Below, in pieces: positions 7,795 through 34,245 of a stretch of 35,857 nt of DNA (within the stretch, counting starts at the first letter, position 1; every line of letters starts with the position of its first letter). Source of the stretch: a virus. The notes below the pieces were generated by a model, which saw only the letters and a list, made by a program, of their open reading frames with translations, was not told where the DNA came from and made no database searches. The position numbers and the translations under genes are program-made. The stretch is taken from UHGV virus genome UHGV-0063910; one strand, 5' to 3'.

Positions 7795-7838
7795 CTATCA
7801 CTGGTATAGTCCATAGAAAAAGTGTAAGGGGTCCTAAA

Positions 7839-8600: not shown

Positions 8601-9308
8601 TACCTAATTTTTAACCTCAACTGATTAAATTTCGGTCAAACATCCGTTAGTGAAATACAAGTTGCTATGTAAATACACACCTGCAACTTGTATTACCAAC
8701 CAAGTTTAGCTCCCGATATTACTCATTTCCATTATTTTTCCTTGGCTAGCGCTTCGTCGAACATTTTTACGTGTTATCTTCAAGGTAGATGCTCGCAGAA
8801 ATGATAGTACCACCGATTCGGCGTTGACCATAAGCCAGCAGAACAAGATCCCCTTGGCCGGTTGTATTCGTTACACCACCAAATGCATAGAATGCCTTGT
8901 TATCAGTATCTTGCTTACTCGGCTACCCACAAGATTGTGGGGATAGCATTTGAGCAACGTAGCCTATCGTCACAGAAGCCCCTACTACAAACATCATATT
9001 ACTGGACGCTATACGCGCTCCTGACATTCAGATAGACACAGCAACGCAAATCATTTGCAGCAGACCAGAGCTTTTACTTTCCACAATAACTGGCACAAAT
9101 ACGAATTTCCCGACCCTCAGTAGAGAGCACAAGCGCATCTTTTCCAATATTCTGTTTCCTATGAAAAATACAGAATGTCAGCTCGCGAAATTTACTAGTA
9201 TTCAGATACTTTTCTAATCGAACCTCTCAGTTTAATCGTCATCATTACCTTATAGCTCTGCATTTCGAGTTCCTACAGTAGAGTAAGTGTTCAGTAACCC
9301 AAGTTCAG

Positions 9309-9517
9309 GAGAAAGGAAACGATCATGCCATTTTCAGTCCCAAATAATGCTTTCCATTTCCTTTCTTTTCAGGTGGTGTTTTAAATAAAAACATAAAGTT
9401 ACGGCGAAGAAGAACGGAAACGCCTTAAACCGGAAAATTTCCATAAATAGAGAAAAACTGCGCGCCTTCCGCCCCGTAGTCTGCCGGATTGCCGGAAAGG
9501 ACCCGCCAGCCAGAGCG
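9309..9517. other. Island cos-like site, homologous to the prophage cos
   Basis: About 210 bp alignable with 24828..25037. The ggttacggcgaagaagaacggaaacgccttaaaccggaaaatt block is near-identical. The cosN-like segment (about 9463..9474) differs at several positions and the R1-like hairpin has diverged. Confidence 0.75.
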
Positions 9518-10235: not shown

Positions 10236-11276
10236 TTAACCAATGCGAACGGTAACAAAACGATTGATGCGGGCCGGTATTGGCTGTGGTGCAGAGTGCG
10301 TTTGTACGTACTCAATAGCCGGATCTCCAGGCACAATGTAGTTTTTCGGTGCGAGTTCGGCTTTAGTCAGCCCCATTCGGATTAGCTCCGGATCCTGAAT
10401 GCCACCGTATGCAACGATGCCCTGAAGTGATGTATTGCCAAGAACCATCAAATCAGGATCAAGGAAATATTTTTCTGTTCCGTCCTCGTCGGTATAACGT
10501 CCGCTATACACAACAATAGCCACATCGCCTACGTAACCCTTAAAACTGACGGAATCCCCAAGATTTTTCAGGGCCGTTTCAAGAACGGAATTAGATCCCC
10601 GTCGAGTATCAAGGCAATCTTTTACTGCTTTAAAGGCGCGGTATTTTTTCCATACGTTGCGTCCCATTACGATGATATTTGTAGTCCCTTCGCTGATTTC
10701 TGCGTACTCTTCGATGTCATCATTTGGATCAAATGTTGATAAATCTCTACCGCTCCACTCCGTGCCGCCGGACTGCGTGATAATATTTTGTGGTTTTATA
10801 TTCCAGTCCAGTTCATAACGTTCAATGCCATCGCCCTCAATGATATTTTTCCCCGTTGTGATTGCCTGAACAGCAAGCCATTCAATACGTGCGCGAATGG
10901 CCTGCGCTTGTCTTACCATCGCTCGCTTTATTTTGAAATTGCGTGATGAATATGCATTGAATTGTTCCGGTGATACGCCTGGTTGACGAACGGCTATTTT
11001 ATTTGGGTCTATACTACTTTTTGGCTTCATGTAGCCAGGGCGAATTACTTTTGATTCGTAGCCTTCATCGCGTGATACTTTACTACCAACCATAGGGGAA
11101 CAAAATGCAGCCATCGGGATGTCTGGATCGTCAATAATATCAAGCGCAATATCCCGCGTCTCAAATGTAACGACTCGCTTAAAAAACAGGTTTATAAATA
11201 AAGAGTTAATCTGCCATTGAATATCTTCGGCATTAACAGTCTGTATTAACTCCGCTGGCGAATATAAACCACTCAT
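10236..11276 (-). CDS. Major capsid protein, lambda gpE-like, full length (island-encoded second copy)
   Basis: 346 aa. Conserved blocks ITQSGGTEWS, DTRRGS, GDVAIVVYSG, YG.IQD shared with lambda E and the split prophage E. Divergent from the prophage copy (roughly half of positions differ by eye). Confidence 0.85.
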   Translation of the reverse strand: MSGLYSPAELIQTVNAEDIQWQINSLFINLFFKRVVTFETRDIALDIIDDPDIPMAAFCSPMVGSKVSRDEGYESKVIRPGYMKPKSSIDPNKIAVRQPGVSPEQFNAYSSRNFKIKRAMVRQAQAIRARIEWLAVQAITTGKNIIEGDGIERYELDWNIKPQNIITQSGGTEWSGRDLSTFDPNDDIEEYAEISEGTTNIIVMGRNVWKKYRAFKAVKDCLDTRRGSNSVLETALKNLGDSVSFKGYVGDVAIVVYSGRYTDEDGTEKYFLDPDLMVLGNTSLQGIVAYGGIQDPELIRMGLTKAELAPKNYIVPGDPAIEYVQTHSAPQPIPARINRFVTVRIG

Positions 11277-11461
11277 ATAACCTCTTAATACTTAGTAAAA
11301 GTGTCGTATTAATTTTATCATCTGCCTTGATCGGCATCTTTATGCATTGCTATGCAATATTGTGCAAAGTTTCAATCTTCGTTTATTTATCCGGCGTTAC
11401 GTGTCATTCTGTACAGCGTTACAAGTTCAAAGACATAAATTATTCTCTTTGGTGATGAAAG

Positions 11462-11487
11462 GGTCGGAATATTCCGGCCTTTTTTTT
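11462..11487 (+). terminator. Intrinsic terminator on the plus strand (hairpin + T8)
   Basis: ggtcggaatattccggcc palindrome followed by tttttttt. No plus-strand ORF upstream, so it may end an unannotated small or antisense RNA. Confidence 0.5.
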
Positions 11488-11510
11488 GCGTGGTGTGACG
11501 GACTCAACTG

Positions 11511-11532
11511 ATAAAAGCCGGATTTCTCCGGC
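11511..11532 (-). terminator. Intrinsic terminator for the island replication operon (minus strand)
   Basis: On the minus strand gccggagaaatccggc followed by ttttat, immediately after the ssb-like stop. Confidence 0.5.
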
Positions 11533-11540
11533 CTGTGCGT

Positions 11541-11947
11541 TCAGAATGGAATATTGTCACCGTAGAGATCATCCCCTCCCGCTGGTGGTGTGTTGCCCTG
11601 TGTGCCTGTGGTTTTACGTCTGTTCCCGCCAGGTCGCACCGTTCGCGCACTGATTACGCTGTCTGCGATAACCTGCCAGCGCTGCCGCGTTTCACCGTTC
11701 TGTCCAGTCCACTGGCTCACCTGCATGTTACCCGCCACGCTCAGGAGTTCGCCTTTGTGATGCTTTGCCAGCGTGTCGGCTTGTCTGCCAAACGCCAGGA
11801 CAGATAACCACATCGTCGCCTGACCGTCATCCGACTGCAGGGCAGTGATACCGCCATACGCGCCAGCGTCATGGGGATGCCCTTGCTGGTCTGTTTTGTC
11901 TGCGGGTCGTCCACCAACCTCCCGTAAACTGATATTTGCGCCGTCAT
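11541..11947 (-). pseudogene. ssb: ssb-like gene split over two reading frames (frameshift near 11838..11850)
   Basis: The 11947 frame gives an SSB-like N-terminus (ISVYGRLVDDPQTKQ...). A different frame gives the OB-fold C-half (WLSVLAFG...KGELLSV...WTGQNGETR) and an acidic tail ending DNIPF. Confidence 0.55.
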
Positions 11948-12201
11948 GCTGCCTGCTCTCCGGACTTAATATTGATGGTTGTCACTTCCTCCGCTTCAGC
12001 AATCTCCCGTTCGGTCAGAGTGGCAAAGTTTGCAGCCGCCGTTGTCATGAATGCGCTAATCAGTTCGGGATGTGCTTTCGCGTATCCTTCACCGGCGTTG
12101 CGATCTATTGCCTTAATCGCCACCCTTAGCCAGTGTTCAGCCATATCAAGGGCGCGGTAATGTGGCTTTATATGTTTGTTCAGTTTTCCTGATGTGTGCA
12201 T
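11944..12201 (-). CDS. Hypothetical protein (85 aa), between the ori and the ssb-like gene
   Basis: ORF whose stop overlaps the ssb-like start; weak RBS. Confidence 0.4.
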   Translation of the reverse strand: MHTSGKLNKHIKPHYRALDMAEHWLRVAIKAIDRNAGEGYAKAHPELISAFMTTAAANFATLTEREIAEAEEVTTINIKSGEQAA

Positions 12202-12246
12202 TTTTATTTTTACCCCCTCGTTTAAAAAGTTTTGAAATGTGGTGCA

Positions 12247-12475
12247 CCTCCTCTACCTCTCTACCTAATCATCTTTCAGGTCAGTAATGGCGCGGCTTTC
12301 AGATGGGTAGAGGGCTTTCGGGGCCCTCTACCCATCCTCTACCCGCCCCTCACAAATGACCTTAATCATGGTGGAGGAGGTAGAGGGCTTTTATTTGCCT
12401 TCTACCTGACCCTCTACCTGCTTATCATATTGAATAATATATATTTATTTTCTTTAGGTAGAGGAGGTAGAGGGC
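12247..12475. repeat. Iteron array (about 9 copies of GGTAGAGG/CCTCTACC, both orientations) flanking an AT-rich stretch: putative island origin of replication
   Basis: Iterons at about 12251-12265, 12306-12313, 12325-12344, 12379-12386, 12399-12420, 12457-12473; AT-rich core 12421-12456; immediately 3' of the primase-helicase gene. Confidence 0.75.
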
Positions 12476-12487
12476 TTTTGTCTAAAA

Positions 12488-14239
12488 TTATAAAAACGCG
12501 TCGCAATCCTCTGTTGTTGTCACATTGGTTTGCGTAAGTCCTTTAACCCTGCGCGTTATATATTCACATCCGTAAACTTTCGCCGCTGGCTTCATGGCCT
12601 TGCTGAAATCAGCCACGTTTAGCGGCTTGCTTCTGCCTGCGTATGCCATAAACGCCAGATAGACGCGGTAAAGGCTGTTTCTGGTCGTGTACTTCACGGA
12701 ATCGCCACCGCCACCCATCATCAGGCCGCGCGCTTCCTCCAGAAAATTCAGAAACTGGCAAAACTCAATAACCGGATCCGTCTGTTGCTTTATCGCCAGT
12801 GCTTCTTCACCGTCGCGCTGTTCAATCAACAAATGTCGCGCCTTTTCTGGATCAGCAAAGTTTGCCAGCAATCTGCGGATAATCACGGGGATTTCAGCCG
12901 CGACCTTCTCCGGTAAATCCTTGTCCTTTTCTGCCTCGCTAACGATATTGTCGAAGCGGAAAATTACGCGACGACGTGACACACCTCCGGCCCGTTCGGT
13001 GAATATCATCGGGTTATTGTTGGTAGCCAGCACCACCGCCCTGATTACCTCCGTAAAACGCTTTTCATATTTCGGGTTTATTTCCACGGGGTCGCCGCCC
13101 GTGATTTTCTTGATGCCCGTGCCTTCGCCTGTATATTTCGGCTGGTCAGCCAGGACGATAAGACGTCTCCCGACAACCTGAGCACGCCCACCAGCATCAT
13201 CAAGCGAAGTCATTTCAGCGCTTACCGTGTTCTGTTTCCCTGCCAGAAGGCTGGCTATGTGCGTGAATGTACTCTTTCCGCTCCCGCCGTCTCCGGTGGC
13301 CTCAATAAACATCTGCCAGTCGTACCGGTTCGCCATAATCATGTACAGCGCGGCACATATACGCATCATCTTGCGCGGGTCTTTTCCGGCTGCGTGATCA
13401 AGCCATTTATGAAAGTTTGGCGCGTTGTCGCGGATGTTCTCCCCTGGTGCTGGTGGCGTGTACTCAATGCCGTTGTGCGTGGTGATCCAGTTCTCCGGCG
13501 AGTGCGGGGAAAATTCCCCCGTTTTCAGGTCAAGCACACCATTGGCGAACGGTAGCAAATCACCGGACGGCTCCCCCATGGGGTCGGCAATAACTTTTAA
13601 CGCCTCCACGGCGTTATTAATTGCACGCTTGCTGAATGTGGCCCTGTGCTCTGAATAGATCGCCACCATTTCGCGGCTCAGCTCCATTGTGCTGACCGGA
13701 CACCATACCCCGCCGCGCCATACGTGGACGATTTCACTTTCTGCATGAACACACACACCATCAAAGCGATCGGCAAGTAGTTGTGCACGTTCACTGTCTG
13801 CCATCTGTGAAAGTTGCGCCTTTTGCTTCGTCGGAAGATTAAGCACCAGACTTTCCCCACGCTCGCATTCCTCTTTGAGTCGCGGCAACTGGTCGGATAA
13901 ATCCACGGGGCTGGTGTCAGTAATCCCCGCGTATTCGTGTACGGTCTTCACTCCAGCCACAGCCAATAACGTAACAATCTGCGTCATGCTGTGCTCTGTG
14001 ATATGTCCTGCGCGGTAAACACGCACACACTGACGATCTTCATCAATGATCCGGTAATCGGTGATATTTTTCAGTTGCTCATCAGCCAGCACGACAGGCG
14101 GCACATCGTCGGCGGCAATATGTTTACCCGCCCATTCCTGCCACTCTTTCGCATGGCTCCACGCATCACTACCTGCAAAGATGATTACCTCTGTCAGTCT
14201 GTCGCGTGGCTGTTTTTTTAAGTTCGGTGCCAGTTTCAT
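12488..14239 (-). CDS. Primase-helicase (D5/P4-alpha-like, SF3 helicase with Walker A)
   Basis: 583 aa; Walker A motif GDGGSGKST in the C-terminal half; location between regulatory genes and ori typical of satellite replication modules. Confidence 0.8.
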   Translation of the reverse strand: MKLAPNLKKQPRDRLTEVIIFAGSDAWSHAKEWQEWAGKHIAADDVPPVVLADEQLKNITDYRIIDEDRQCVRVYRAGHITEHSMTQIVTLLAVAGVKTVHEYAGITDTSPVDLSDQLPRLKEECERGESLVLNLPTKQKAQLSQMADSERAQLLADRFDGVCVHAESEIVHVWRGGVWCPVSTMELSREMVAIYSEHRATFSKRAINNAVEALKVIADPMGEPSGDLLPFANGVLDLKTGEFSPHSPENWITTHNGIEYTPPAPGENIRDNAPNFHKWLDHAAGKDPRKMMRICAALYMIMANRYDWQMFIEATGDGGSGKSTFTHIASLLAGKQNTVSAEMTSLDDAGGRAQVVGRRLIVLADQPKYTGEGTGIKKITGGDPVEINPKYEKRFTEVIRAVVLATNNNPMIFTERAGGVSRRRVIFRFDNIVSEAEKDKDLPEKVAAEIPVIIRRLLANFADPEKARHLLIEQRDGEEALAIKQQTDPVIEFCQFLNFLEEARGLMMGGGGDSVKYTTRNSLYRVYLAFMAYAGRSKPLNVADFSKAMKPAAKVYGCEYITRRVKGLTQTNVTTTEDCDAFL

Positions 14240-14535
14240 TTTTTGCCCCTGAATGCGTTAATCATGCTTTTCATTTTCTGGATGTTTCCCCGCGCTTTTT
14301 CCCTGCTGATGGGGTTACTGCGGGGTGCGGCATATACCAGGGAAAAATCACGCCGGAACTGATAAACAGGCATCACGCAGTCATAGCTATACCCCTCACG
14401 GCGGTAAGTGATGCGCCGTTCTGCCACGCCTTTAATCGTTACCGTGCCGCCGTATTTATCGCGGTAAATATCGCCGTTCATAAATTCAGGCCGAGCGGGG
14501 CCGCTGGCAATAAAGCCAGAATTTTTCATTTCCAT
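14236..14535 (-). CDS. Hypothetical protein (99 aa), translationally coupled to primase
   Basis: Stop overlaps the primase ATG (ATGA). Confidence 0.5.
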   Translation of the reverse strand: MEMKNSGFIASGPARPEFMNGDIYRDKYGGTVTIKGVAERRITYRREGYSYDCVMPVYQFRRDFSLVYAAPRSNPISREKARGNIQKMKSMINAFRGKK

Positions 14536-14552
14536 ATTATTTATTCCTCGAC

Positions 14553-14774
14553 TTAACTCGACTTATTTGATAGCAGGGCACTATTTATTGCGTCATTGAG
14601 TTTTTCTGCTGCTTCATCAATAAGTGACAACAGGCCATAAGCAATATTTGCATCTTCATTGTCATTTATGCAATCAAGCCACATATTTAATATTGCTTTT
14701 GCTGAATTATTTAAAGTTAATGAACTTTCTGCACATGCTAACAATTTAAAAAAGACTTCCCGTTCTGTATTCAT
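14553..14774 (-). CDS. Hypothetical small protein (73 aa)
   Basis: ORF in the tightly packed minus-strand operon; AT-rich codons. Confidence 0.4.
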   Translation of the reverse strand: MNTEREVFFKLLACAESSLTLNNSAKAILNMWLDCINDNEDANIAYGLLSLIDEAAEKLNDAINSALLSNKSS

Positions 14775-14966
14775 TTAATCCCCCACCAGCTTACTTTCTT
14801 CCTCAATCAAAAAACTAGCGACACTTCCCGAAAGACGCGCCAGTAGGCTCGCCAGTGCGGATATATCAGCATCTGTAATTTTGTTCGGGTATACCTCAAG
14901 AAGGCGGCAAATAATTTCTGTCTGGTGCGCACGTTCAGCGGCTTCGTGTAATGTAATTTCCTGCAT
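14775..14966 (-). CDS. Hypothetical small protein (63 aa)
   Basis: Abuts neighbouring ORFs in the same operon. Confidence 0.4.
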   Translation of the reverse strand: MQEITLHEAAERAHQTEIICRLLEVYPNKITDADISALASLLARLSGSVASFLIEEESKLVGD

Positions 14967-15151
14967 TAATGCACCTCTTTTAATTCATACACTGCTGAAA
15001 TAATGACTTGTGATAAGCCATATTCTGATGATTCGCTTCTCACCGCAGCAATAGCCGTCTGAACATTAACAGCCTTCACGTTCTGAGCGATACCAATTGT
15101 GTGGCCTAGTGGGTTAACCGCACGAGCAAATACACGGAAGGTTTTAAGCAC
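14966..15151 (-). CDS. Hypothetical small protein (61 aa)
   Basis: Abuts neighbouring ORFs in the same operon. Confidence 0.4.
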   Translation of the reverse strand: MLKTFRVFARAVNPLGHTIGIAQNVKAVNVQTAIAAVRSESSEYGLSQVIISAVYELKEVH

Positions 15152-15508
15152 GGCATACCTCCTGACGAATACGGGCGGCGAATATCATCACGCAGCCAGT
15201 TGGGGATTGTTGGCGGGCTTCCTGTTCGCTGGTGGCCTCGATGTGTATTACGCGTGGTTGTGCGGTGCTCAGGGCGATAAAACGCCAGATGAAATTGTTT
15301 TCGCATTTCTGAATAAACAGCGTGTTTTCTTCACGCCCTTTCCAGAAAGCCGCAGTATAGCCCATCTCCTTAACCATCTTGCGGGCATCAACCAGCGTGT
15401 CAGCGGCAACATGTACCGTAGTTGCTCCATCTGCCATGCGGTCGTGGTGTAGTGCCAGAAAGGTGTATATAAATTTAGGGTGAGTTTGGGTATGCTGTGT
15501 TCCAGCCA
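15144..15508 (-). CDS. Hypothetical protein (121 aa), first gene of the island early operon
   Basis: ATG at 15506-15508 with GAGG RBS. The track ORF upstream of this ATG (to 16058) is antisense to the regulator gene and Ser/Arg-rich, so treated as spurious. Confidence 0.5.
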
Positions 15509-15595
15509 TAATCGTTACCTCGTTTAACGGTTTGGTTAGAAGCCCGGTTAGTGTTCGCGCACTGCCGGGTTTCGTCGTTTTTATGAATCGATCAT

Positions 15596-15699
15596 TGTGA
15601 GATACATAGCGACCATAATGTGAGATATACATTATATTGTGGTGATATACATTGCAAGTGTTTTTATATCTCACTTTTGTGTATAGTGATATACACATA
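15596..15699. promoter_or_regulatory. Divergent control region with 5 copies of a GTGA(G/T)ATA(T)ACA(T) operator-like repeat
   Basis: Copies at about 15596-15608, 15619-15632, 15640-15651, 15665-15674 (inverted), 15687-15699, between the minus-strand operon start and the plus-strand regulator. Confidence 0.55.
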
Positions 15700-15717
15700 A
15701 CAAATTGGTGATTAACT

Positions 15718-16020
15718 ATGTCTGTATACAAAAATGCAAAATCGCAAATGACAACGATCAGGGTTCCCCACGATGTTATGGAGGGCATGGAATCCGTAAA
15801 ACTGGACGGCGAAAGCAACGCCGGATTCATAGTAACCGCCATGCGCGGTGAGATCGCCCGCCGCCAGGCAGAAGGAAGCGGAGAAAATCCCCTCGTGTCT
15901 TCACTGGATGCCTTAGCTAAGGTCGAACAAATCGGCATCAAGGCAGCGGAGGAAATCGGGCAACTCGTAGCCGTCGCTCGTGAAGAACTCCAGCGGCGTA
16001 AAGCCAAAGAATCTGAATAA
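15718..16020 (+). CDS. Putative ribbon-helix-helix-like DNA-binding regulator (candidate island repressor)
   Basis: 100 aa; N-terminus QMTTIRVPHDVMEGMESVKLDGESNAGFIVTAMRGEIARRQ fits a strand-helix-helix layout; immediately downstream of the operator repeats. Confidence 0.4.
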   Translation: MSVYKNAKSQMTTIRVPHDVMEGMESVKLDGESNAGFIVTAMRGEIARRQAEGSGENPLVSSLDALAKVEQIGIKAAEEIGQLVAVAREELQRRKAKESE

Positions 16021-16370
16021 TTAGTATCAGCGCCGTGATGTGAGTAACTACGGCGCATTGCTATGTAAATACTGGCAATAAACAGAAAAGGTAGTTCTAC
16101 TCCGAATAATTTTATCTGACACTACTCCTGAACTAACATGCGCTTATCTTACAGGATATAAATATAAATCCATAAAATCACGATTAAATAAAGTCGCTCC
16201 AAACATAAACCACACCCAACGCTTAACAAGATAGCAACAAACAGGTAAATAACTTGCAGAAATATTTATCGCAAGGATTATCATTATTAATGACAAATCA
16301 CTTTACCAAGTCATTCCCCTCTCTTATCATAAAGAGAAAGTAATAAATAAGTTAAGGGAGTTAGAATGCT

Positions 16371-16907
16371 ATGAATCTAAAAAAAATAGCCACAAACACA
16401 AAAAACAAGATAACAGAAACATTTAATAAACTTATATTGGAGGCATCTAAAACCCCCACGCAAGATGAAATTAAAATACTTGAGAGAAGGAGTAAGAAGT
16501 TTAATTACTCCTTTTTCTCATACGCAGTCACAGGAGCTATAATAGTTTTTTGCTCTCAACCATTAATTAAATACGCAAACCCAATACTTATTTTATTGAG
16601 TGGTCTGTTACTGTCTATCATCATTATCATTCTCAGAATGATTTATATTTCACAAGCGAATGCATCATGGACAACCAAAAAACGCTCACATGTACTAGTT
16701 CATTTTCTTTCTGCATGTTTCATAGCATCAACATTGACGTTGCTATATCAGGCTTACGATAATAACATCACACACAAATTGTACTGTAAAAATATACAAC
16801 AACTTATTGAAAAAAGGATAGAAATAGAAAAAAACATCAGCATATTCAGTGGGATGCAATGCACCCCGGTATATGATTACTCTTTATTTGGATTTAATCT
16901 CTTATAA
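16371..16907 (+). CDS. Small membrane protein (about 3 TM helices), AT-rich cargo
   Basis: 178 aa; hydrophobic stretches FFSYAVTGAIIVFCSQPLI, ILILLSGLLLSIIIIILRMIYI, VLVHFLSACFIASTLTLLY; Lys/Asn/Ile-rich; preceded by GGGAG. Confidence 0.5.
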   Translation: MNLKKIATNTKNKITETFNKLILEASKTPTQDEIKILERRSKKFNYSFFSYAVTGAIIVFCSQPLIKYANPILILLSGLLLSIIIIILRMIYISQANASWTTKKRSHVLVHFLSACFIASTLTLLYQAYDNNITHKLYCKNIQQLIEKRIEIEKNISIFSGMQCTPVYDYSLFGFNLL

Positions 16908-16927
16908 AGAATGTTATTACTGATTTG

Positions 16928-16961
16928 AGTACAAATTCTCAAATCAGTAATTCATAATATT
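16928..16961. terminator. Bidirectional terminator hairpin (13-bp stem) between the membrane-protein gene and alpA
   Basis: ttactgatttgag ... ctcaaatcagtaa inverted repeat with an 8-nt loop and T-rich flanks on both sides. Confidence 0.55.
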
Positions 16962-16976
16962 TTATTCTGAGATAAT

Positions 16977-17213
16977 TTAAACTACCCACTCACCTCGAAT
17001 CCATGCCTGCACTTCTGAAAGACGATATGCAACAGCAGTGGAACCAATCTTGATCCGCTTAGGAAATTTTCCTTCCTTCTCCAGCTTCCAGCGTGTGCTG
17101 TTCGCAAGAGTGGTTAGCTCCCGACATTCTTTCTCACGGATCATTCGGTCAATGTTAGGAATGTACTCCAGACCCTTTTTATCAACAATTGCCATTTTTT
17201 TCATGTTAACCAA
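16977..17213 (-). CDS. alpA: AlpA-family HTH regulator / excisionase-like protein
   Basis: 78 aa; ELTTLANSTRWKLEKEGKFPKRIKIGSTAVAYRLSEVQAWI matches the AlpA pattern; directly downstream of int, overlapping it by 8 nt. Confidence 0.7.
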   Translation of the reverse strand: MVNMKKMAIVDKKGLEYIPNIDRMIREKECRELTTLANSTRWKLEKEGKFPKRIKIGSTAVAYRLSEVQAWIRGEWVV

Positions 17214-18441
17214 CCTTTTGTTTGAGGATTGTCACTTTTGAATCAGCACCTGCGATGCTATTGAGATATGTAGTCCAGAGTTCCAGAGCATCCAGTTTTT
17301 TAGCCATAAACTTACTCCGGTTGTAAACACCTGCCACGCCAGGTAGCGCATGGCCTAACAGTTGTTCTACTACATAAAATTCAACACCGAGATCACTTAG
17401 ATGAGTAGATAGCGTTCTTCTAAGGTCGTGTAGTGACCATTGTTTTTCATGGCCCAAACGTTTACCGATTTTCCCCCCAATCTTGCTTACGCTTTCTCTA
17501 ATTCGCAGACTTCCCAGCACATAACCAGTATGTTTTGTCTCTTCGTGAACATCCGTTACCCACTGTCGTAGAATTTCAGGTACTGGTCTGACGATTTCAA
17601 CACCAGTTTTTGAGTGATCTTTTGGTACAGTCCAAACCCAACTTTCGAGATCCCATTCGCTCCATTCTGATAATCGGGCTTCACTCATTCGACATCCAAA
17701 TACTGTACAAAGCACAAACATTTTTCGCGTGTATTCAGACATTAGTTTTAAATCAGGCTCGACAAAAATTGCCTTCCAGAGCTGGCCGAGTTCGGCTTCA
17801 TCCAGAACCCGATCCCGCTTACCTGCAATCTGCCCCACATCACTCATGCGCAAATCCTTTAAAGCATCACACGTCGCGTACTGGCGTACCCGACAAAAAC
17901 GAAGAGCTAATTTAGTGTCAGAAAAAACATACGCCGCCATAACTGGTGCATTACGTTTAATTCGGTCAAAACAGTCCAGCCATTCATATAGGTGAGTGTC
18001 ATTTACGGGCAAATGACCGATATAGGGAAAGATATGCTTTCGAAATCTGCCAAGCGTTACAGCATGAGTTTTACGACGCACCTTACAGTAATTTTCATAC
18101 CAGTAATTTAGTGCATCCTCCACTGTGACCGGCTTTAAGCGTTCTTCAGCCTGAATCTTAATCTGGATACGCGGATCACGTTTGTCAGCCAACCAACCAC
18201 GGCACTCGTCGCGCTTTTCCCTTGCCTGTTTGAGTGACATATCAGGATATTTACCCAACGTTAGCCAGACCGGAGCAGCCCGGCCACCTGCTAACCTGTA
18301 GAAGAAAACAAAGCTTACAGCCCCTTTAGTACTCACACGAATAGAAAGCCCCTTTCCATCAGCAATGGTGATCTGCTTTTCTCTGGGTTTCCCCAGATAT
18401 CCTTTAAGCGCTTTGTCGCTCAGTTTGTTCTCGCCAGCCAT
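17206..18441 (-). CDS. int: Tyrosine integrase (P4-type)
   Basis: C-terminal catalytic region with HDLRRT...LGH...Y residues; sits next to the right repeat. Start placed at ATG 18439-18441 (MAGENKLSDK...); the track ORF extends to 18492. Confidence 0.85.
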   Translation of the reverse strand: MAGENKLSDKALKGYLGKPREKQITIADGKGLSIRVSTKGAVSFVFFYRLAGGRAAPVWLTLGKYPDMSLKQAREKRDECRGWLADKRDPRIQIKIQAEERLKPVTVEDALNYWYENYCKVRRKTHAVTLGRFRKHIFPYIGHLPVNDTHLYEWLDCFDRIKRNAPVMAAYVFSDTKLALRFCRVRQYATCDALKDLRMSDVGQIAGKRDRVLDEAELGQLWKAIFVEPDLKLMSEYTRKMFVLCTVFGCRMSEARLSEWSEWDLESWVWTVPKDHSKTGVEIVRPVPEILRQWVTDVHEETKHTGYVLGSLRIRESVSKIGGKIGKRLGHEKQWSLHDLRRTLSTHLSDLGVEFYVVEQLLGHALPGVAGVYNRSKFMAKKLDALELWTTYLNSIAGADSKVTILKQKVG

Positions 18442-18605
18442 TTTTAGCCCCAAAAAGCAATACAAGCTGCAATACAGAGATGATTGCAACACACAGATAA
18501 CGAGGAAAATTCAGTGAAAGCACCAGATAAACTTATTCTTTATTATCAAAAGATTAAGTGTAAAAACCAGCAACTACACGAAAGCCTCAGAAAGCCATGC
18601 TAAGT

Positions 18606-18615
18606 GCTTGGGTTT
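18606..18615. repeat. Right copy of 10-bp direct repeat TGCTTGGGTT (putative attR core)
   Basis: Identical to 7480..7489; lies inside the codons KPKH of the E 5' fragment. Confidence 0.8.
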
Positions 18616-18849
18616 GACATAACCCGGCGTAAATTCAGAGGTGGAGCCGCCACGGGATCGGATAACCTCACCGGAAACAATCGGCGAAACGTACAGCGCC
18701 ATGTTTACCAGTCCCGGAATTTGTGAGAGATAGACTTTTTCCGTGGTGAAAGGATAGGTTTCACGGAAAAACAGGCGCAGAAACAGCGGATCGAACTTAA
18801 AGTGATGCTGGGTCGATGCCAGTAATTCTGCAGTTGTATATACAGACAT
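18606..18849 (-). pseudogene. E: Major capsid protein E, 5' portion (codons 1-~82), reads into island DNA
   Basis: MSVYTTAELLASTQHHFKFDPLFLRLFFRETYPFTTEKVYLSQIPGLVNMALYVSPIVSGEVIRSRGGSTSEFTPGYVKPKH matches the lambda gpE N-terminus, then continues as LAWLSEAFV-stop in island sequence (track ORF ends at 18574). Confidence 0.9.
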
Positions 18850-24259: not shown

Positions 24260-24285
<26 letters not shown>

Positions 24286-24805
24286 TCAGCAACCCCAGTA
24301 TCAGTTCATCCAGCGCGGCTGCTTTGTTCATGGCTTTGATGATATCCCGTTTCAGGAAATCAACATGTCGGTTTTCCAGTTCCGGAAAACGCCGCTGCAC
24401 CGACAGGGGGATCCCGTCGAGAATACTGGCAATTTCACCTGCGATCCGCGACAACACGAAAGTACAGAATGCGGTTTCCACCACTTCAGCGGAGTCTCTG
24501 GCATTCTTCAGTTCCTGTGCGTCGGCCTGCGCACGCGTAAGTCGATGGCGTTCGTACTCAATAGTCCCTGGCTGGAGATCTGCCTCGCTGGCCTGCCGCA
24601 GTTCTTCAACCTCCCGGCGCAGCTTTTCGTTCTCAATTTCAGCATCCCTTTCGGCATACCATTTTATGACGGCGGCAGAGTCATAAAGCACCTCATTACC
24701 CTTCCCACCACCTCGCAGAACGGGCATTCCCTGCTCCTGCCAGTTCTGAATGGTACGGATACTCGCACCGAAAATGTCAGCCAGCTGCTTTTTGTTGACT
24801 TCCAT
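24260..24805 (-). CDS. Nu1: Terminase small subunit Nu1
   Basis: 181-aa ORF MEVNKKQLADIFGASIRTIQNWQEQGMPVLRGGGKGNEVLYDSAAVIKWYAERD... essentially the lambda Nu1 sequence. Confidence 0.95.
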
Positions 24806-24827
24806 TGTTCATTCCACGGACAAAAAC

Positions 24828-25037
24828 AGAGAAAGGAAACGACAGAGGCTAAAAAGCCCGTTTTCAGCACCTGTCGTTTCCTTTCTTTTCAGGGGGTGTT
24901 TTAAATAAAAACATTAGGTTACGGCGAAGAAGAACGGAAACGCCTTAAACCGGAAAATTTTCATAAATAGCGAAAACCCGCGAGGTCGCCGCCCCGTAAC
25001 GGTCTGGATCACCGGAAAGGACCCGCCAACGACTTTC
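24828..25037. other. Prophage cos site (cosB R elements, cosN with 12-nt cohesive end AGGTCGCCGCCC at 24983..24994, cosQ side)
   Basis: Reverse complement contains GGGCGGCGACCTCGCGGGTTTTCGCTATTTATGAAAATTTTCCGGTTTAAGGCGTTTCCGTTCTTCTTCGCCGTAAC, matching the lambda left end/cos as recalled. Confidence 0.9.
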
Positions 25038-25217
25038 GCGTGCAGGCATTAAAAATTTTGCAGTTCCATGCCTAGTTGAAACCTCGATTTCTATAACATC
25101 CAATTTTGTAAATTTAGATATAGCTCAACTTTTCCCAATGTTTTCAAGTGTATAAAAACAATTGGCGTTACGCCATAACACTATACTTAGGATAAGTAAA
25201 GATTTTAAGGAGTTTTA

Positions 25218-26285
25218 ATGAGTCAACATCAATATTATCCACAGCTGAAATGGAAGCCTGCTGAATATGAATCTCTGATGCTTTTAGATCAAACTACGCT
25301 CTCTGGTTTTACTCCGATCATTACCATTCCAGACATAGACTGGGATTATGAAAACGAATGCTACAAGAAGAGTTTGAGTTCTTACTTATCTGACTTCGGT
25401 ATTAACCTTGCGGCATCCTGGAAAGCCAATCGTCCTGTTTTGCTGGATGTTAAATATTTAGATAAACATGGTTCGAGCCGCCATCATCCTCTAGATATGT
25501 GTATCCAAGATGCTAGAGTAAATGGTAAGGAAATTATCCCTGTTGTTTCTCCCGCATATTCAACAAACTATATACATGCTGTTCAACGCAACTTAATCAA
25601 TGGGCTCGCTATATCTATCACCCCCCAGACATGGCACCAATTCACAAGTCTGGTTAACCACTTAAATATTCATCCTAGTTTAATTGATGTAATCATTGAT
25701 TTTGGAGATATTCAAAACGCAACTGATAGTTTAAAACAACAAGCATTAAGCATGGTCAACACATTATCAGGCCAAGCTCCGTGGAGAAACTTGATTTTAT
25801 CTTCAACCGCATACCCGGCATCACAGGCAGGGATACCGCAACATCAAGTTCATCATATTCCGCGCCATGAATACGATCTTTGGATGTACGTAGTACAGAA
25901 TTTTAGCAATGGAAGAACGCCAAGTTTTAGTGATTATCCCACCGCTAGCTCTACCATTACGAGCGTAGACCCACGCTTCATGTCTCAGTATGTCTCAGTG
26001 AGATATTCGAACGATACCTCATGGATCTTTGTAAAAGGTACCGCAGTTAAAGGAAATGGATGGGGCCAAACTAAAAACTTATGTACTACCCTTGTTAGTT
26101 CGCCAGAGTATCAAGTCTTTGGCTCCAAATTTAGTTGGGGGGATGATTACATTTACCAAAGATCATTAGGCGCTAACAAATCTGGCGGCTCTAAAGAATG
26201 GCGTAAAGTTGCACATACGCACCATATTACGTTAGTCGTGAGACAGCTTTATTGGTTGGCGCAGACTCAGCCTGCCAAGCCTTAA
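25218..26285 (+). CDS. Hypothetical protein (355 aa), AT-rich cargo gene next to cos
   Basis: ATG with TAAGGAG RBS. Opposite strand to the phage late genes, in the position lambda uses for bor-type accessory genes. No family recognised with confidence. Confidence 0.6.
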   Translation: MSQHQYYPQLKWKPAEYESLMLLDQTTLSGFTPIITIPDIDWDYENECYKKSLSSYLSDFGINLAASWKANRPVLLDVKYLDKHGSSRHHPLDMCIQDARVNGKEIIPVVSPAYSTNYIHAVQRNLINGLAISITPQTWHQFTSLVNHLNIHPSLIDVIIDFGDIQNATDSLKQQALSMVNTLSGQAPWRNLILSSTAYPASQAGIPQHQVHHIPRHEYDLWMYVVQNFSNGRTPSFSDYPTASSTITSVDPRFMSQYVSVRYSNDTSWIFVKGTAVKGNGWGQTKNLCTTLVSSPEYQVFGSKFSWGDDYIYQRSLGANKSGGSKEWRKVAHTHHITLVVRQLYWLAQTQPAKP

Positions 26286-26847
26286 CTTTCCAGCCTACGC
26301 GTTTCTTTAAGGCTGTTCTGACTTCAAGCCTGAGATTCGCTATTGGAATATTTTCCGCAATAATATTCCATAACTCAAATCGGGGCTTGCTTTTTATTCC
26401 TTTGGAATAGCCCCATCGTTCAAGTACGTCGATACATTCATCTTTCCAAAGCAATTGAGCGAGCATCAATGTGTCATGGTTTCGATTAAGCTTTTCTCCA
26501 CGCATGTGCTTTATAAGAATGGCGCCTTTTGGCCCAACAGAAACCGTTTTAACGCCCCACCAACCTGGGATTAACTTTAATGCTCCCTCAAGGTGTTTCT
26601 CAGCTACGACAAGAGTAACCTTGTCCATTACAGAAGAATAATGCTTGATTTGAAGAGGCAAACGCTCCAAAGAGTCATATTCACTTTTGAGCTCGTACCC
26701 GTGTATAACACCATTTATTACAGCAATGTCTGCTCTACTGGCGCCAAGGGATATGGAAAATTCATCGACCACAAGGCAGTCTGGATCTAAATGCGATTCT
26801 TTCAAAAGCTTATGATGCACCGCGAACCTAACATCTTGATCTTTCAT
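26227..26847 (-). CDS. Hypothetical protein (206 aa) with possible PD-(D/E)xK nuclease-like motif, AT-rich cargo gene
   Basis: ATG with AAGGAG RBS; segment VVDEFSISLGASRADIAVINGVIHGYELK has the D...(E)xK spacing of restriction-endonuclease-like folds. Its 3' end overlaps the 355-aa gene convergently by 59 bp. Confidence 0.55.
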   Translation of the reverse strand: MKDQDVRFAVHHKLLKESHLDPDCLVVDEFSISLGASRADIAVINGVIHGYELKSEYDSLERLPLQIKHYSSVMDKVTLVVAEKHLEGALKLIPGWWGVKTVSVGPKGAILIKHMRGEKLNRNHDTLMLAQLLWKDECIDVLERWGYSKGIKSKPRFELWNIIAENIPIANLRLEVRTALKKRVGWKVKAWQAESAPTNKAVSRLT

Positions 26848-27263
26848 GACTTCTCCTTACTCCCTCCGTTATTGAATTATAGCGCACTGCATTTTACTGC
26901 ATTTGAGAGATTTGACCACTTCAATCACAAAATGCTTATCTGCAGCAACAAGATTCATAGCCATACGACTATGGTGATTACCTTTTGTCTGGAAAACTGA
27001 CCATTCCACGAAGATCAGATAGGTCTATAGAATCTTGGTTTGTCATAGCGTTCGCCTTACTTTGAGATGAACCTTTGCTGCATAGGAGATCAGCCCGTCA
27101 AGGCTCACCAGCACTAACTGACTACTCAAAGGCTCATTCCAAAGGGTTTGGTTCGACGTGGTTGAGTGCGCTCCGGTGCGCGGTGAAATACCTGTACAAA
27201 AATGCCCCGCATCTGCGAGGCATTTTCCTGAAAGTCACGTATAAAATTTCAGTGAAATTAAAA

Positions 27264-27701
27264 TTATTTTAAGCACTGCGTCCTGATGTATTCCTGCAGG
27301 TAGTTAACCTGCGCGGTTATCCTGTCGATTCCACTTCGGAGACGGTAATAATTGAGTTCAGCATCTGCTGTAAGTCTTGGGCTTTCTCCATCGCCCATGC
27401 TGCTGGCTCCGGTCGTTGACTTTGCACAGGTGGCGGAGACTTGCAGGCGCTTACGACCAACAGAAACATCAGCACGGAGACTTTCGATAGTCGCGTTAGC
27501 ATCAGCAAGCTCCTTTGTGTATCTGGCGTCGAGTTCTGCTACATCACGTTGACGCTTCTGCATGTCAGCGATTGTGGATGTGGCTTTATCGCGCTGCTCT
27601 TTGTAGGCGATGGCGTTATCACGGTAATGATTAACAGCCCATGACAGGCAGACGATGATGCAGATAACCAGAGCGGAGATAATCGCGGTTACTCTGCTCA
27701 T
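27264..27701 (-). CDS. Rz: Spanin inner-membrane subunit Rz
   Basis: 145-aa [40 protein letters not shown]... matches lambda Rz. Confidence 0.9.
27317..27508 (-). CDS. Rz1: Spanin outer-membrane lipoprotein Rz1 (embedded in +1 frame within Rz)
   Basis: Embedded ORF with lipobox LVVSAC followed by a Pro-rich segment (SPPPVQ). True start may be an internal Met. Confidence 0.6.
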
Positions 27702-28787: not shown

Positions 28788-29477
28788 TTAATCCAGTTTT
28801 GCAATATTTTGCTGTGAAAATGTCGCCTTTTGTTTTGAACGTGTTCTCGTTAGAAGCAATAAAGCTTCGCTATCAAGCTGTAGAAAAATGTGCTTCATTG
28901 CAACCCAGCGTTCAGTGAATGTCTCAGACCAGTTTTTTGATGTCACTCCCACCAGTGACGCCAGTTCCTGGTATTCATAAGCCTCACGCCCTGCCAGTTC
29001 GCTCTTCACATCCTGTGCCGCCAGCCAGATCAACTTCTTCAGGCGTTCCAGTGTCTTACCTGCAATTTTTCTGGTACCCAACAGAGTCTTAAACTCGCTC
29101 CATGCCCACTGCGTTATGGCAACCTGATGCTCCCAGCGAATATTTTCACTGTAACTCCACAGCAACCATGCTTTCTGATGCTCATCGAGAGACAGAACAG
29201 CGCGGCGCCATGAAGAGGTTGAAAACTCGACCGGACTGATCAGGGCGACAGATGAACCTTTTGCGTACGACTGTTTACCGGAAATCGGCGGATTATCCAG
29301 CATAATAATCTTGCCAGTTACCTCATCCAGAATGCGTCGCTTCTTTCGTTTGTATGTACCAGTATCAAATTGTGCATGCTCCAGCCAGGCTTCAAGCTGG
29401 CCTTTCGTTGCTCCGCTCAAGTCAGCGGTAGCCACCATGAGTTGCTCGCGGACATACTGTAAATATTGGGTATTCAT
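28788..29477 (-). CDS. Late-gene antiterminator Q-like protein (non-lambda type)
   Basis: 229-aa ORF in the canonical position between the nin region and the lysis genes; not similar to lambda Q. Assignment is mainly positional. Confidence 0.55.
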   Translation of the reverse strand: MNTQYLQYVREQLMVATADLSGATKGQLEAWLEHAQFDTGTYKRKKRRILDEVTGKIIMLDNPPISGKQSYAKGSSVALISPVEFSTSSWRRAVLSLDEHQKAWLLWSYSENIRWEHQVAITQWAWSEFKTLLGTRKIAGKTLERLKKLIWLAAQDVKSELAGREAYEYQELASLVGVTSKNWSETFTERWVAMKHIFLQLDSEALLLLTRTRSKQKATFSQQNIAKLD

Positions 29478-31325: not shown

Positions 31326-32369
31326 ATGAAAATTAACAAGATATTATCATCTGCAACACTATTGTATGGTATGTCAATGGCCATGTCGGTCGGGAGTTGT
31401 GCAACACCTGTCCAGACTAATCTTCCTGGTTACACCCCGGGTGCAGATATCATTAGTGTTTCACCGACCAGAAACCAGGTCGATCTCATTGGTGATGTTG
31501 TTTATTCCCAGATAAAAGGAACTCGTTCTGTCAGACAGCTTCACATGTCAGTTCTTGTCCCACGAACAAATGATTTAAAACCAGCCATTATTTATTATCC
31601 CGGCGGCGGATTCATGTCTTCTGAACATGACAAATTTATTGAAATGAGAATGGCTCTGGCTGAAGCTGGTTTTGTTGTGGCCGCTGTAGAATACAGAACA
31701 ATTCCTGATACATTTCCAGCACCAGTTGAGGATGGGAAAGCTGCAATACGTTACTTGAGAGAACATGCCAGCGATTATGGGATTGATCCTCAAAGAATCG
31801 GAGTTCTGGGTGACTCTGCCGGTGGATGGCTTGCCCAGATGATGGGAACTACAAATGGTGACAAAACCTTTAATAAAGGTGACTTTCTTCAGCAATCAGC
31901 AGATGTTCAGGCAGTTGCCACACTTTATGGGATTTCTGACTTGTTGAATATTGGCGAGGGGTTCCCTGAATCAGTGCAGGAGGTTCATCGATCTCCTGCC
32001 GTAACCGAAGCCTTAATGATCAATGGCCCTGCATTCAGAAGTTTTGCGGGAGCCCCCATAACAGCGTCAAAAGAAAAAGCGCTAAACGCCAGTCCAATCG
32101 GACATATGAAAGGAGTAAAACCCCCATTTCTTATTATGCATGGTAGCAAAGACACTCTGGTTTCACCTGAGCAAAGCGCCAAACTATTCAGGATGTTGAA
32201 GAAGAACGGCGATAACGCTGAGTACGTTCTGGTAGAAGGGGCTGAGCATGGCGATAATACATGGTATCAGCCAATTATTATAAACAGAGTTGTTGAGTGG
32301 TTTACTAAAAACCTGGGAACCCCCATAAAAACCGCTACCCAACAACAAAAAACAAACGCTGACCTGTAA
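31326..32369 (+). CDS. Secreted/lipoprotein alpha/beta-hydrolase esterase (HSL-type), cargo gene
   Basis: 347 aa; N-terminal signal peptide with lipobox-like MSVGSC; PGGGF oxyanion-hole-type motif and GDSAGG nucleophile elbow; hairpin gcccgca-ctta-tgcgggc right after the stop. Confidence 0.75.
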   Translation: MKINKILSSATLLYGMSMAMSVGSCATPVQTNLPGYTPGADIISVSPTRNQVDLIGDVVYSQIKGTRSVRQLHMSVLVPRTNDLKPAIIYYPGGGFMSSEHDKFIEMRMALAEAGFVVAAVEYRTIPDTFPAPVEDGKAAIRYLREHASDYGIDPQRIGVLGDSAGGWLAQMMGTTNGDKTFNKGDFLQQSADVQAVATLYGISDLLNIGEGFPESVQEVHRSPAVTEALMINGPAFRSFAGAPITASKEKALNASPIGHMKGVKPPFLIMHGSKDTLVSPEQSAKLFRMLKKNGDNAEYVLVEGAEHGDNTWYQPIIINRVVEWFTKNLGTPIKTATQQQKTNADL

Positions 32370-32718
32370 AAAGCAGCCCGCACTTATGCGGGCTAACCTA
32401 TTTCACTCGATTCAAAAGAAATTATTTTTAATGGGGGCGTGACCAGCCTCTCGGTGCTCAGATACTTAATGAAGTGGAGTGGCATTCAGGCAAGAGGTTA
32501 ACATCACCTGTTCGCCATAACCAAGCACGTGCACAAAGTTTGTTATCAGTGAATTGTTTTGTGATTGGGTATTGTTGAGCTACTAGAGCAAGAATGCCAA
32601 CATCCAGTGGCAGTGCCTATAGTAAAACTATAGCTCAGGGCGCTTCGTTCAAGATAGTTAATATCATATTAGTTACTTTACTTTCATACCATAGCACGGT
32701 TGAAAAAGTGATTATTAC

Positions 32719-34245
32719 TCAAAAATAAATCTCACCATCAACCATATATTTAAGAGTACTTATCGCCTGCTGGGCGGATATTACTTTCATTAAAGGATAG
32801 TGTTTAAAAACAATGCCATTCATAAAATAGATATCACAGGTTTTATTATCTGTATTAATTATAATTTTTTCGAATATTTTATAGGCAAGTGTTCGACATA
32901 GCTCTCGCCCATTTTTACTGGTTAAATCAATAGCATGAAAATCACCAAGTGAACTCACCCCTTTACTCTTCAAAGTTTTTAATGATACCGAAGCCCTTCG
33001 TAATTCCTTATCTAATAGTCTTATTTTCTCTGCTATAGCGGTAACTTCAGGCGCGACAGACAATGCAACGATTAAATTATTAATTTTCATCTGAAGCTCA
33101 ATAATTTTTAACTCTAAAGTTTCATTAGCATCTTTCTTGTTTTCAACTGGTTGAATTTTGCTACAATTAAAAAGCAATTCATTAATGATATTATAATCAA
33201 CCAAATCTCTTTTTATTGATGGTCTGTCACATCGATGTAATCTTCTCATCGGACAAACATAATAGCCATGCAAACTTCCAGATACCGCATGAACAATCAT
33301 GGTATTACCACAAGCCTCACACTTCATAACTGTTCGAAGTAGATTTATTAGCATAGGATTCTTGCTACTATTGCTAATACCAAAAGGTGCCAACCGAATT
33401 TCCTGTACAGCGTAAAACAAATCATCTGATATGACTCTGGGATAATAGCCAGCGATTTCACTTATCCCTTTCCCTCTTGCACGATATGAAGGTACGCATA
33501 TACCTATCAGAGCTTTATTCGCTAATAATTTTTCAATTACAGAAGGTCCCCATGCACTTTCTTTTCCTGAGAAATTCTTTACAGCATGATCATTTAAATA
33601 CTTGGCTATTGCATTCAATGAGCGCCTTTCCATCCTGAGTTTAAAAATTAGCTCAATAGTTTTCACCCTGTCGGGGTCTGGAACAAAAGCCGTTCTTTTG
33701 TCATCCAATGAGAGCCATCTCGGACAAGAAGCCGTCATAATCGTGCCTGACTCCAGTGCATCCTGCCGTTTTTTCTTCCATGATAATTTAACCCGACTTG
33801 ACTTTATCTCGCTTTCTTCATTTGCCCTTTGTGCTATAAGTATGGCTTTTATTAATGAATATGGCTCATTCAATGAGTCAATATTATAGACTGTATTATC
33901 GCAAAGAGTTATAACATCAATACCGTGATTCAAAATCAATTTCAGACGCTCAATCGCTTCACCGACTTTTTCTCTTGAAAGTCTGTCCAGACTTTCAACT
34001 AACAATGTAGTCCCTGGCAATATATAACCATGTTCTATAGCATCTAAAAATTCCGAAAAAGCTCCTGATTGTGCATGCTTTCCATTGAATGCGCTTAACC
34101 CCAAATCTTCATACGTTACGGTATCAAGGTAATAATCACTATTTACCTTTAGCCATTCAGTAATAAGCCTTCTCTGGCGGTTTAATGAATCACCAGACAT
34201 CTGACCTGGTGATGAAAATCGCATATATGCTATGGCTTTTTTCAT
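32719..34245 (-). CDS. ybcK: Large serine recombinase (YbcK-like)
   Basis: 508 aa; N-terminal resolvase-type catalytic motif AYMRFSSPGQ (catalytic Ser), large C-terminal domain with Cys-rich zinc-ribbon-like segment and coiled coil; AT-rich; position matches DLP12 ybcK next to emrE. Confidence 0.8.
   Translation of the reverse strand: MKKAIAYMRFSSPGQMSGDSLNRQRRLITEWLKVNSDYYLDTVTYEDLGLSAFNGKHAQSGAFSEFLDAIEHGYILPGTTLLVESLDRLSREKVGEAIERLKLILNHGIDVITLCDNTVYNIDSLNEPYSLIKAILIAQRANEESEIKSSRVKLSWKKKRQDALESGTIMTASCPRWLSLDDKRTAFVPDPDRVKTIELIFKLRMERRSLNAIAKYLNDHAVKNFSGKESAWGPSVIEKLLANKALIGICVPSYRARGKGISEIAGYYPRVISDDLFYAVQEIRLAPFGISNSSKNPMLINLLRTVMKCEACGNTMIVHAVSGSLHGYYVCPMRRLHRCDRPSIKRDLVDYNIINELLFNCSKIQPVENKKDANETLELKIIELQMKINNLIVALSVAPEVTAIAEKIRLLDKELRRASVSLKTLKSKGVSSLGDFHAIDLTSKNGRELCRTLAYKIFEKIIINTDNKTCDIYFMNGIVFKHYPLMKVISAQQAISTLKYMVDGEIYF

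Follow-up and report, generated by a model that had tools for sequence, protein, structure and literature searches.

The DNA analysed here (UHGV virus genome UHGV-0063910; 35,857 nucleotides, hereafter the window) is part of an Escherichia coli lambdoid prophage and carries, beside cos, two convergent genes that encode a 355-amino-acid (aa) beta-family protein and a 206-aa sce7726-family protein with a predicted nuclease fold. The most fitting description of the pair is a gop-less beta/cII cassette (Beta_protein plus sce7726 nuclease), the conserved core common to two validated defence systems, gop-beta-cII of satellite phage P4 and PD-lambda-2. Anti-phage defence is its likeliest function, in which the nuclease would be the effector and beta would have a sensing or controlling role; we give this reading a probability of roughly 0.55. 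The most unexpected feature is that the two genes overlap tail to tail in a fixed antiparallel register that spans phyla, an arrangement that appears to be undescribed.

The two genes encode a beta-family and an sce7726-family protein

A first reading of the window from its letters alone (the sequence-only reading) had reported two convergent genes, the larger of them AT-rich, with strong ribosome-binding sites and a 59-bp overlap, had noticed a D...ExK motif in the smaller product, and had likened the pair by size to proteins of the sce7725 and sce7726 families. The listing of open reading frames (ORFs) confirmed the genes at 25218–26285 (+, ATG) and 26227–26847 (−, ATG). AAGGAG stands 5 nt before the ATG of both (25207–25212, +; 26853–26858, −), and the GC content of the region is 0.38–0.42.

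The 206-aa protein matched the NCBIfam profile NF033832 (sce7726) with 184.1 bits (E = 2.3e-54, profile positions 1–182 of 184; curated cut-off, 70 bits), and the Prokaryotic Genome Annotation Pipeline (PGAP) labels the identical E. coli protein 'sce7726 family protein'. It was also matched by the PADLOC 'cll' profile (4.3e-31) and by P4 cII (BLASTP E = 1e-18, 27% identity). The motif noticed earlier is present as ADIAVINGVIHGYELK. E29, D40, E52 and K54 were invariant in 60 homologues with 40–85% identity to the query and in P4 cII, and the E-D-ExK-Q catalytic set was likewise invariant, P4 cII included. An AlphaFold2 model with a predicted local distance difference test (pLDDT) score of 89.5 displayed the alpha-beta-beta-beta-alpha-beta core of PD-(D/E)xK nucleases, in which strand 2 bears D40 and strand 3 bears E52-x-K54. 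The nuclease domain (about residues 1–120) is followed by a SAP-like helical C-terminal domain (about 126–182) and a disordered tail (pLDDT <50). The best structural match was an MmcB-like protein of a DNA-repair family (3dnx), and no solved structure was matched at the sequence level. By its modelled core and its catalytic residues, the protein is assigned to the PD-(D/E)xK nuclease fold and is predicted to have nuclease activity. Distant sce7726-like proteins without an evident beta were also seen in large lytic phages (H73–H110; Staphylococcus Kayvirus-like and Bacillus SPO1-like), with about 25–38% identity over part of the nuclease domain.

The 355-aa protein matched Pfam PF14350 (Beta_protein) over the entire profile (1–342 of 342; 190.4 bits, E = 8e-56; gathering threshold, 27 bits), as did 32 of 32 diverse beta partners, and its PGAP name in E. 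coli is 'beta family protein'. Two PADLOC PD-Lambda-2_C profiles matched it (4.4e-32 and 2.2e-25), the PADLOC P4 'beta' profile did so more weakly (3.5e-10), and P4 beta aligned over the full length with 22% identity (BLASTP E = 3e-7). Profiles and fold make it a TIM-barrel protein related to P4 beta and to PD-lambda-2 C. Among beta proteins of 20–31% identity, Y6, E16, P33, P108, D161, D239 and H336 were invariant, and D77, R216 and Y240 nearly so. Most of these residues sit at or just past the ends of predicted barrel strands or in terminal segments, which suggests an enzymatic or ligand-binding pocket.

The suggestion of sce7725 and sce7726 is therefore right for sce7726, and the name sce7725 for its partner is supported by no profile match. 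An sce7725 profile match was found neither for the 355-aa protein at E ≤ 1 (NCBIfam) nor for eight diverse beta homologues, two of them from Sorangiineae, and an annotated sce7725 neighbour was absent at both plasmid loci picked to show one. Our literature search found no papers on PF14350, on the function of sce7726 proteins, on the two-gene beta/sce7726 form or on the conserved overlap; sce7725 and sce7726 appear in the literature as gene-list entries only. A 2026 paper on a 'beta family protein' was set aside because it concerns the 2TM-beta family.

Beta and sce7726 are paired across bacterial phyla

Using a peptide pattern for sce7726, we scanned a single genome of each species and confirmed 389 relatives, a number of species that is a lower bound given the pattern-limited scan. 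The best 80 loci were analysed. They came from Proteobacteria, Bacillota, Myxococcota, Desulfobacterota, Acidobacteriota, Bacteroidota, Elusimicrobiota, Armatimonadota, Gemmatimonadota, Melainabacteria and several lineages of the candidate phyla radiation (CPR). Two of these loci were cut by contig ends; a beta homologue was present in 77 of the 78 testable ones, and the single true beta-less locus was from Xenorhabdus. Beta was downstream of and convergent with sce7726 in 77 of 77 loci. Both genes, again convergent, were found on all 40 testable beta-anchored viral contigs of IMG/VR, and the two families co-diverge (r = 0.83; Mantel 0/500). The co-occurrence that the sequence-only reading had named as a check is thus borne out.

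A homology search with a broad beta alignment gained five new proteins, and annotated plasmids were used for a beta-anchored survey. Eighteen of its 29 matches overlapped an annotated sce7726 gene, and sce7726 was missing where a divergent beta gene had an Xre-family gene (Xre-peptidase) as its sole partner. The dependence is asymmetric: beta is found without sce7726, and this sce7726 subfamily is almost never found without beta. Since beta occurs without sce7726 and has several partners, it looks like a hub or regulator, and sce7726 looks like its dependent effector. The pair occurs on plasmids, integrative elements and prophages as well as in chromosomes of many phyla outside prophages. E. 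coli phage Rac-SA53, in its nin region, and an E. coli phage-plasmid provide further two-gene examples, and 27 of 74 loci had no co-directional ORF directly upstream of beta.

The beta-less locus (L008 6001–7810, Xenorhabdus koppenhoeferi) lies just past a prophage Rz-like gene. Its sce7726 gene is followed by two co-directional ORFs of 165 aa and 241 aa, which by sequence resemble a protein kinase fragment and a PP2C-type phosphatase, respectively.

The antiparallel overlap has a fixed register

In the window, the overlap (26227–26285) sets beta residues 337–355 against the unconserved, disordered tail of the sce7726-like protein (residues 187–206). The 3' ends overlapped in 76 of the 77 beta/sce7726 loci, by 4–158 nt (median about 54); as a crude control, only about 19% of the other convergent neighbour pairs in the same loci did so. 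In 65 of 74 loci, which represent at least 11 phyla, the codon of the invariant beta H336 and that of the invariant sce7726 R183 on the opposite strand stood exactly 34 nt apart. The exceptions (37, 58, 73 and 74 nt) were mostly in-frame changes. In the 34-nt class, the top-conserved nucleotides, CTCGCCA, encode L-A of beta on one strand and W-R of sce7726 on the other. An AACCAC/GTGGTT inverted repeat of the consensus was rejected as a hairpin or terminator, as Alifold gave no structure and the minimum free energy (MFE) was that of shuffled sequences.

In the window, as in its closest enterobacterial relatives, the spacing is 73 nt, which corresponds to a 39-nt in-frame expansion that pulls the two motifs apart; the 59-bp overlap of the window is therefore a derived form. 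On the nuclease side it is confined to the unconserved tail, and on the beta side to the end of the last helix.

Comparison with gop-beta-cII, PD-lambda-2 and other nuclease systems

Resistance to lambda and P1 is conferred by gop-beta-cII of P4 (Rousset et al., 2022; PMC9122126), a system whose toxicity phage orf184 triggers (10.1101/2023.04.06.535777). Within P4, beta reportedly neutralises the toxicity of Gop (Ghisotti, 1990, cited in PMC9122126). The P4 genome carries, beside cos, gop (+), beta (+) and a convergent cII (−) annotated as sce7726 family. The window shares with it a beta protein of 355 aa, the homology of both proteins (beta 22%, cII 27% identity), the order of beta followed by convergent cII, and a position beside cos in a variable cargo hot spot. 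Several differences stand against these likenesses. Neither a gop gene nor a gop-like ORF is present in the window, and a tblastn search of it with P4 Gop gave nothing better than E = 1.7. Both proteins have diverged strongly from those of P4. Its beta scores higher on the PD-Lambda-2_C profiles than on the P4 beta profile, and P4 cII has a C-terminal extension of about 60 aa that is without counterpart in the window protein. Beta and cII are separated in P4 by a 27-bp gap with a terminator, whereas they overlap by 59 bp in the window, and P4 is a satellite whereas the window pair resides in a lambdoid prophage.

PD-lambda-2 consists of a HigB-like A, an Xre-peptidase B and a beta-like C, of which C is needed for defence and not for toxin neutralisation (Vassallo et al., 2022; PMC9519451). 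The window shares the C-type protein. In PD-lambda-2, A and B lie upstream of C, whereas the window pair is flanked by cos/Nu1 and Rz; neither a HigB-like A nor an Xre-HTH-peptidase B was found upstream of the window beta, where cos and Nu1 but no ORF are located. Among the sce7726-anchored loci, 12–14 of 77 had a HigB-like and/or Xre-peptidase gene that abuts beta and matches the PD-Lambda-2_A and _B profiles. Such PD-lambda-2-type operons with a convergent, overlapping sce7726 were seen in many phyla (L037, L045, L053, L057, L060–L063, L070, L072, L074–L078; L133 4537–5142) and also, by PGAP annotation, on a Sinorhizobium plasmid. In these operons, sce7726 is a fourth gene outside the published three-gene description. 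At other loci (L066 and L081 from Desulfovibrionaceae, L068, L004), strongly hydrophobic ORFs of 54–329 aa abut the 5' end of beta; they recall the P4 membrane toxin Gop and are not homologous to it by clustering.

The 206-aa protein shares its core fold and the layout of its catalytic motif with MmcB-like and VRR-NUC-type PD-(D/E)xK nucleases (SPO1766, 3dnx; FAN1), and FAN1 likewise combines a SAP domain with a PD-(D/E)xK nuclease domain. These proteins differ from it in sequence (8–18% identity only), domain order and context, and they are without a beta partner. The cassette also resembles convergent type II restriction-modification (R-M) and toxin-antitoxin cassettes in being a mobile two-gene unit with a nuclease, a convergent layout and a dependent, potentially toxic component that almost never occurs without its partner. 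Unlike type II R-M systems, the pair has no methyltransferase match, and the partner is a TIM barrel of unassigned activity. We know of no description of a fixed-register antiparallel coding overlap across phyla as a feature of either class.

The pair is a mobile moron in the Rz-cos hot spot

The cargo site lies, as first reported, between cos and the lysis cassette. One border is the cosN cohesive-end sequence GGGCGGCGACCT, which we take to be the lambda cohesive end known from the lambda sequence; it was matched exactly at 24983–24994 (−), with 0 matches expected by chance. Nu1 (24260–24805) and the large terminase are located on the cos side, and Rz, endolysin and holin on the other side, from 27264. 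Between them, a low-GC cargo cassette of about 2.0 kb (approximate boundaries 25033–27042) contains the two genes and their own regulatory regions. The GC content of 0.38–0.42 holds over 25001–27000, compared with 0.51–0.58 on the terminase side and >0.5 in the flanks.

Phage records matched only 24800–25032 (Nu1 side) and 27043–27300 (Rz/rha side) of the window, not the interior. The right-hand segment matches the rha-Rz junction of P22/Salmonella phage, so that the cassette seems to have replaced most of an rha-like gene. A short ORF of 22 codons (26978–27046, −) adjoins this P22-type junction match and is the probable 5' remnant of the truncated gene. A 46-aa ORF (26869–27009) was rejected as a third gene for want of conservation in relatives, and from cos to beta the + strand has no ORF as long as 40 aa or longer in the ORF listing.

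A search of 5426 complete E. coli genomes returned the same 2.5-kb stretch (≥98.8% identity) in 126 of them, and about 4450 E. coli genomes share the flanks only. The arrangement is not a chance pair of ORFs, because it occupies the same site in these 126 genomes and the pair recurs across phyla. IMG/VR contigs (L082–L121) carried a 99–100% identical beta/sce7726 cassette between Nu1 alleles of 36–99% identity and Rz alleles of 84–94% identity. Different lambdoid backbones thus trade the cassette as a whole at this one Rz-cos site, and the pair is a mobile moron in this hot spot.

Regulatory signals and other elements of the prophage

Upstream of beta, a conserved block, TTAGATATAGCTCAA ... 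TTTTCA..TATAAA (25114–25158, +), is kept in Edwardsiella, Klebsiella, Pantoea and Pectobacterium relatives with diverging surroundings. It is probably the promoter and/or operator of beta; a strict sigma-70 scan made no call there. A consensus scan identified a terminator-like hairpin just upstream of beta (25163–25175, −), which could end read-through transcripts from the sce7726-like gene. Upstream of the latter, about 90 nt are conserved in five genera. The promoter scan gave a promoter-like TGGTCA-16-TAAAAT (26891–26918, −) that is conserved across genera. Its −10 element is overlapped by a tandem 8-mer, AATGCAGT-AA-AATGCAGT (26886–26903, −), which is essentially invariant in Escherichia, Edwardsiella, Klebsiella, Pantoea and Pectobacterium, with one variable base in the second copy and diverging flanks; we regard it as a candidate operator. 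An inverted-repeat search revealed 13-nt arms downstream of Rz (27199–27226), likely a bidirectional terminator that insulates the cassette from the lysis operon. No terminator was found between beta and the sce7726-like gene of the window, and convergent read-through transcription is therefore expected.

Elsewhere in the prophage, a 91-aa 5' fragment of a Phage_cap_E major capsid gene (18577–18849, −) lies beside a tyrosine integrase gene (17209–18492, −), and a full-length Phage_cap_E copy is located at 10239–11276 (−). Between the capsid copies are a D5_N/DUF5906 primase-helicase gene (12491–14239), two ORFs of unassigned function and a segment with a GC content of 0.31–0.33 (16001–17000). 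The region 10239–18849 looks like an integrative satellite-like element of about 7 kb in the prophage's own capsid gene that supplies a replacement 5' end. The N-termini of the two capsid products share just 33% identity, and a search for an attachment-site duplication turned up no direct DNA repeat of ≥25 nt. Another low-GC block (31326–34245), past the Q antiterminator gene (28791–29477), contains a BD-FAE/alpha-beta hydrolase gene (31326–32366, +) and a large serine recombinase gene (32722–34245, −).

Discussion

We propose that the pair acts as a two-component superinfection exclusion or abortive infection system. In this model, the 206-aa protein would be the effector, a metal-dependent PD-(D/E)xK DNA endonuclease with a SAP-like DNA-binding domain, and beta would be its obligatory partner, which senses infection and/or restrains the nuclease. 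Each gene would be expressed from its own conserved promoter region, and the two transcription units would read into each other. The tail-to-tail overlap locks the genes together genetically and may set their expression ratio by antisense interference. The same prophage carries a second defence-type moron, an AbiJ-like gene (7839–8597, +; Pfam Abi_C 1.7e-23, PADLOC AbiJ 2.4e-22), on the opposite strand between head-completion and tail genes in a low-GC island (7501–9500), and we count it as support for the defence reading. The suggestion of the sequence-only reading, a defence or exclusion module with possible antisense coupling, is partly supported.

Several observations weigh against this proposal. 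The defence role of the two-gene form is extrapolated from its relatives, and Gop, the only toxin reported in P4, is absent from the window. The validated PD-lambda-2 clone (ECOR42) ends about 396 bp past gene C, too short for an intact sce7726, so the nuclease is not universally required where beta acts. Beta itself matches only generic TIM barrels at ≤10–14% identity, with no solved relative and no assigned activity. Distant sce7726 relatives are found by themselves on plasmids and in lytic phages of Staphylococcus and Bacillus, and the fold may therefore have other roles, such as phage DNA metabolism. As for the overlap, Alifold detected no conserved RNA structure in it on either strand and its MFE equals that of shuffles. 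P4 keeps the two genes apart by its gap and terminator, which indicates that the overlap is not indispensable.

These points on the overlap also bear on whether it has a regulatory role at all. It may instead be an evolutionary ratchet, in which dual-coded, conserved C-termini forbid insertions and deletions; we consider this quite possible, though somewhat less likely than not. The lack of RNA structure agrees with a ratchet, the conserved residues on both strands account for CTCGCCA, and both P4 and the subclade of the window, with its 39-nt expansion, have relaxed the dual coding and kept the genes. Against it, the genes are convergent and overlapping or adjacent in 77 of 77 loci even where the motifs are separated, far fewer of the other convergent pairs overlap in the crude control, and convergent transcription is unavoidable where no terminator separates the genes. 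At the opposite end, the pair might be an autonomous, widespread two-gene defence, the ancestral core of both gop-beta-cII and PD-lambda-2, with the overlap acting as its control device. Nuclease expression in healthy cells would then be kept low by convergent transcription or antisense pairing, and a phage that disturbs transcription or RNA turnover of its host would tip the balance and release the nuclease. On this view the overlap is a regulatory arrangement under conservation and more than a saving of space. We regard this fuller version as unlikely.

Other functions appear less probable again. An addiction cassette, in which the nuclease is the toxin and beta or an antisense transcript the antidote, would stabilise itself or the prophage, with any anti-phage effect incidental. 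The reported neutralisation of Gop by beta, the asymmetric dependence of the nuclease on beta, the physical bar that the overlap sets to separation of the genes, and the presence of the pair on plasmids, integrative elements and prophages all point this way. We nevertheless hold it improbable: the related three-gene systems give measurable phage resistance (PMC9122126, PMC9519451), the position is a classic one for morons and defence genes with an AbiJ-like gene in the same prophage, and toxin-antitoxin and abortive-infection roles are compatible in any case. Marginally less credible than addiction is self/non-self discrimination similar to R-M, in which beta would be a DNA-modifying TIM barrel (for example by base exchange, as in the tRNA-guanine transglycosylase (TGT)/DpdA class) that marks host or prophage DNA, the nuclease would cut unmarked DNA, and the convergent layout would govern how the system becomes established, in the manner of certain type II R-M systems. 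The DpdA match was no better than those to dozens of unrelated TIM barrels, and no methyltransferase or TGT family signal was found in 32 beta proteins. Beta also pairs with non-nuclease toxins (Gop; the HigB/Xre-peptidase pair) and occurs without any nuclease, so that a regulator or sensor fits better than a modification enzyme.

The least likely of the readings is a role in the phage's own life cycle, either in lysogeny control, to which the historical name cII alludes, or in DNA repair or processing by an MmcB-like nuclease. The structural match to 3dnx, database names such as 'regulatory protein' and 'DNA repair protein MmcB-like' for some relatives, the distant relatives in lytic phages, the SAP-like DNA-binding domain and the operator-like repeat in the gene's own promoter are in keeping with such a role. 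However, the 126 E. coli genomes with the cassette compare with about 4450 that have the flanks, which marks the cassette as dispensable cargo; the pair is common in chromosomes and plasmids of many phyla outside prophages; and the P4 genes are non-essential and confer defence (PMC9122126). Anti-phage defence by a nuclease effector under the control of beta thus remains the favoured reading.

Finder programs generally define gop-beta-cII and PD-lambda-2 by rules that call for gop or for the A and B genes. Should the two-gene form prove active, rule-based finders would probably be skipping a defence system that is common (at least 389 species; 126 complete E. coli genomes), and the two validated systems would be elaborations of one beta-centred core. 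The data further suggest that PD-lambda-2-type loci often carry an unreported fourth gene, and they name the nuclease as the likely effector together with its exact residues. Finally, an overlap held in one register from Enterobacteria to CPR lineages is an exceptionally clear natural example in which to study what constrains antiparallel overlapping genes and how they might be put to regulatory use.

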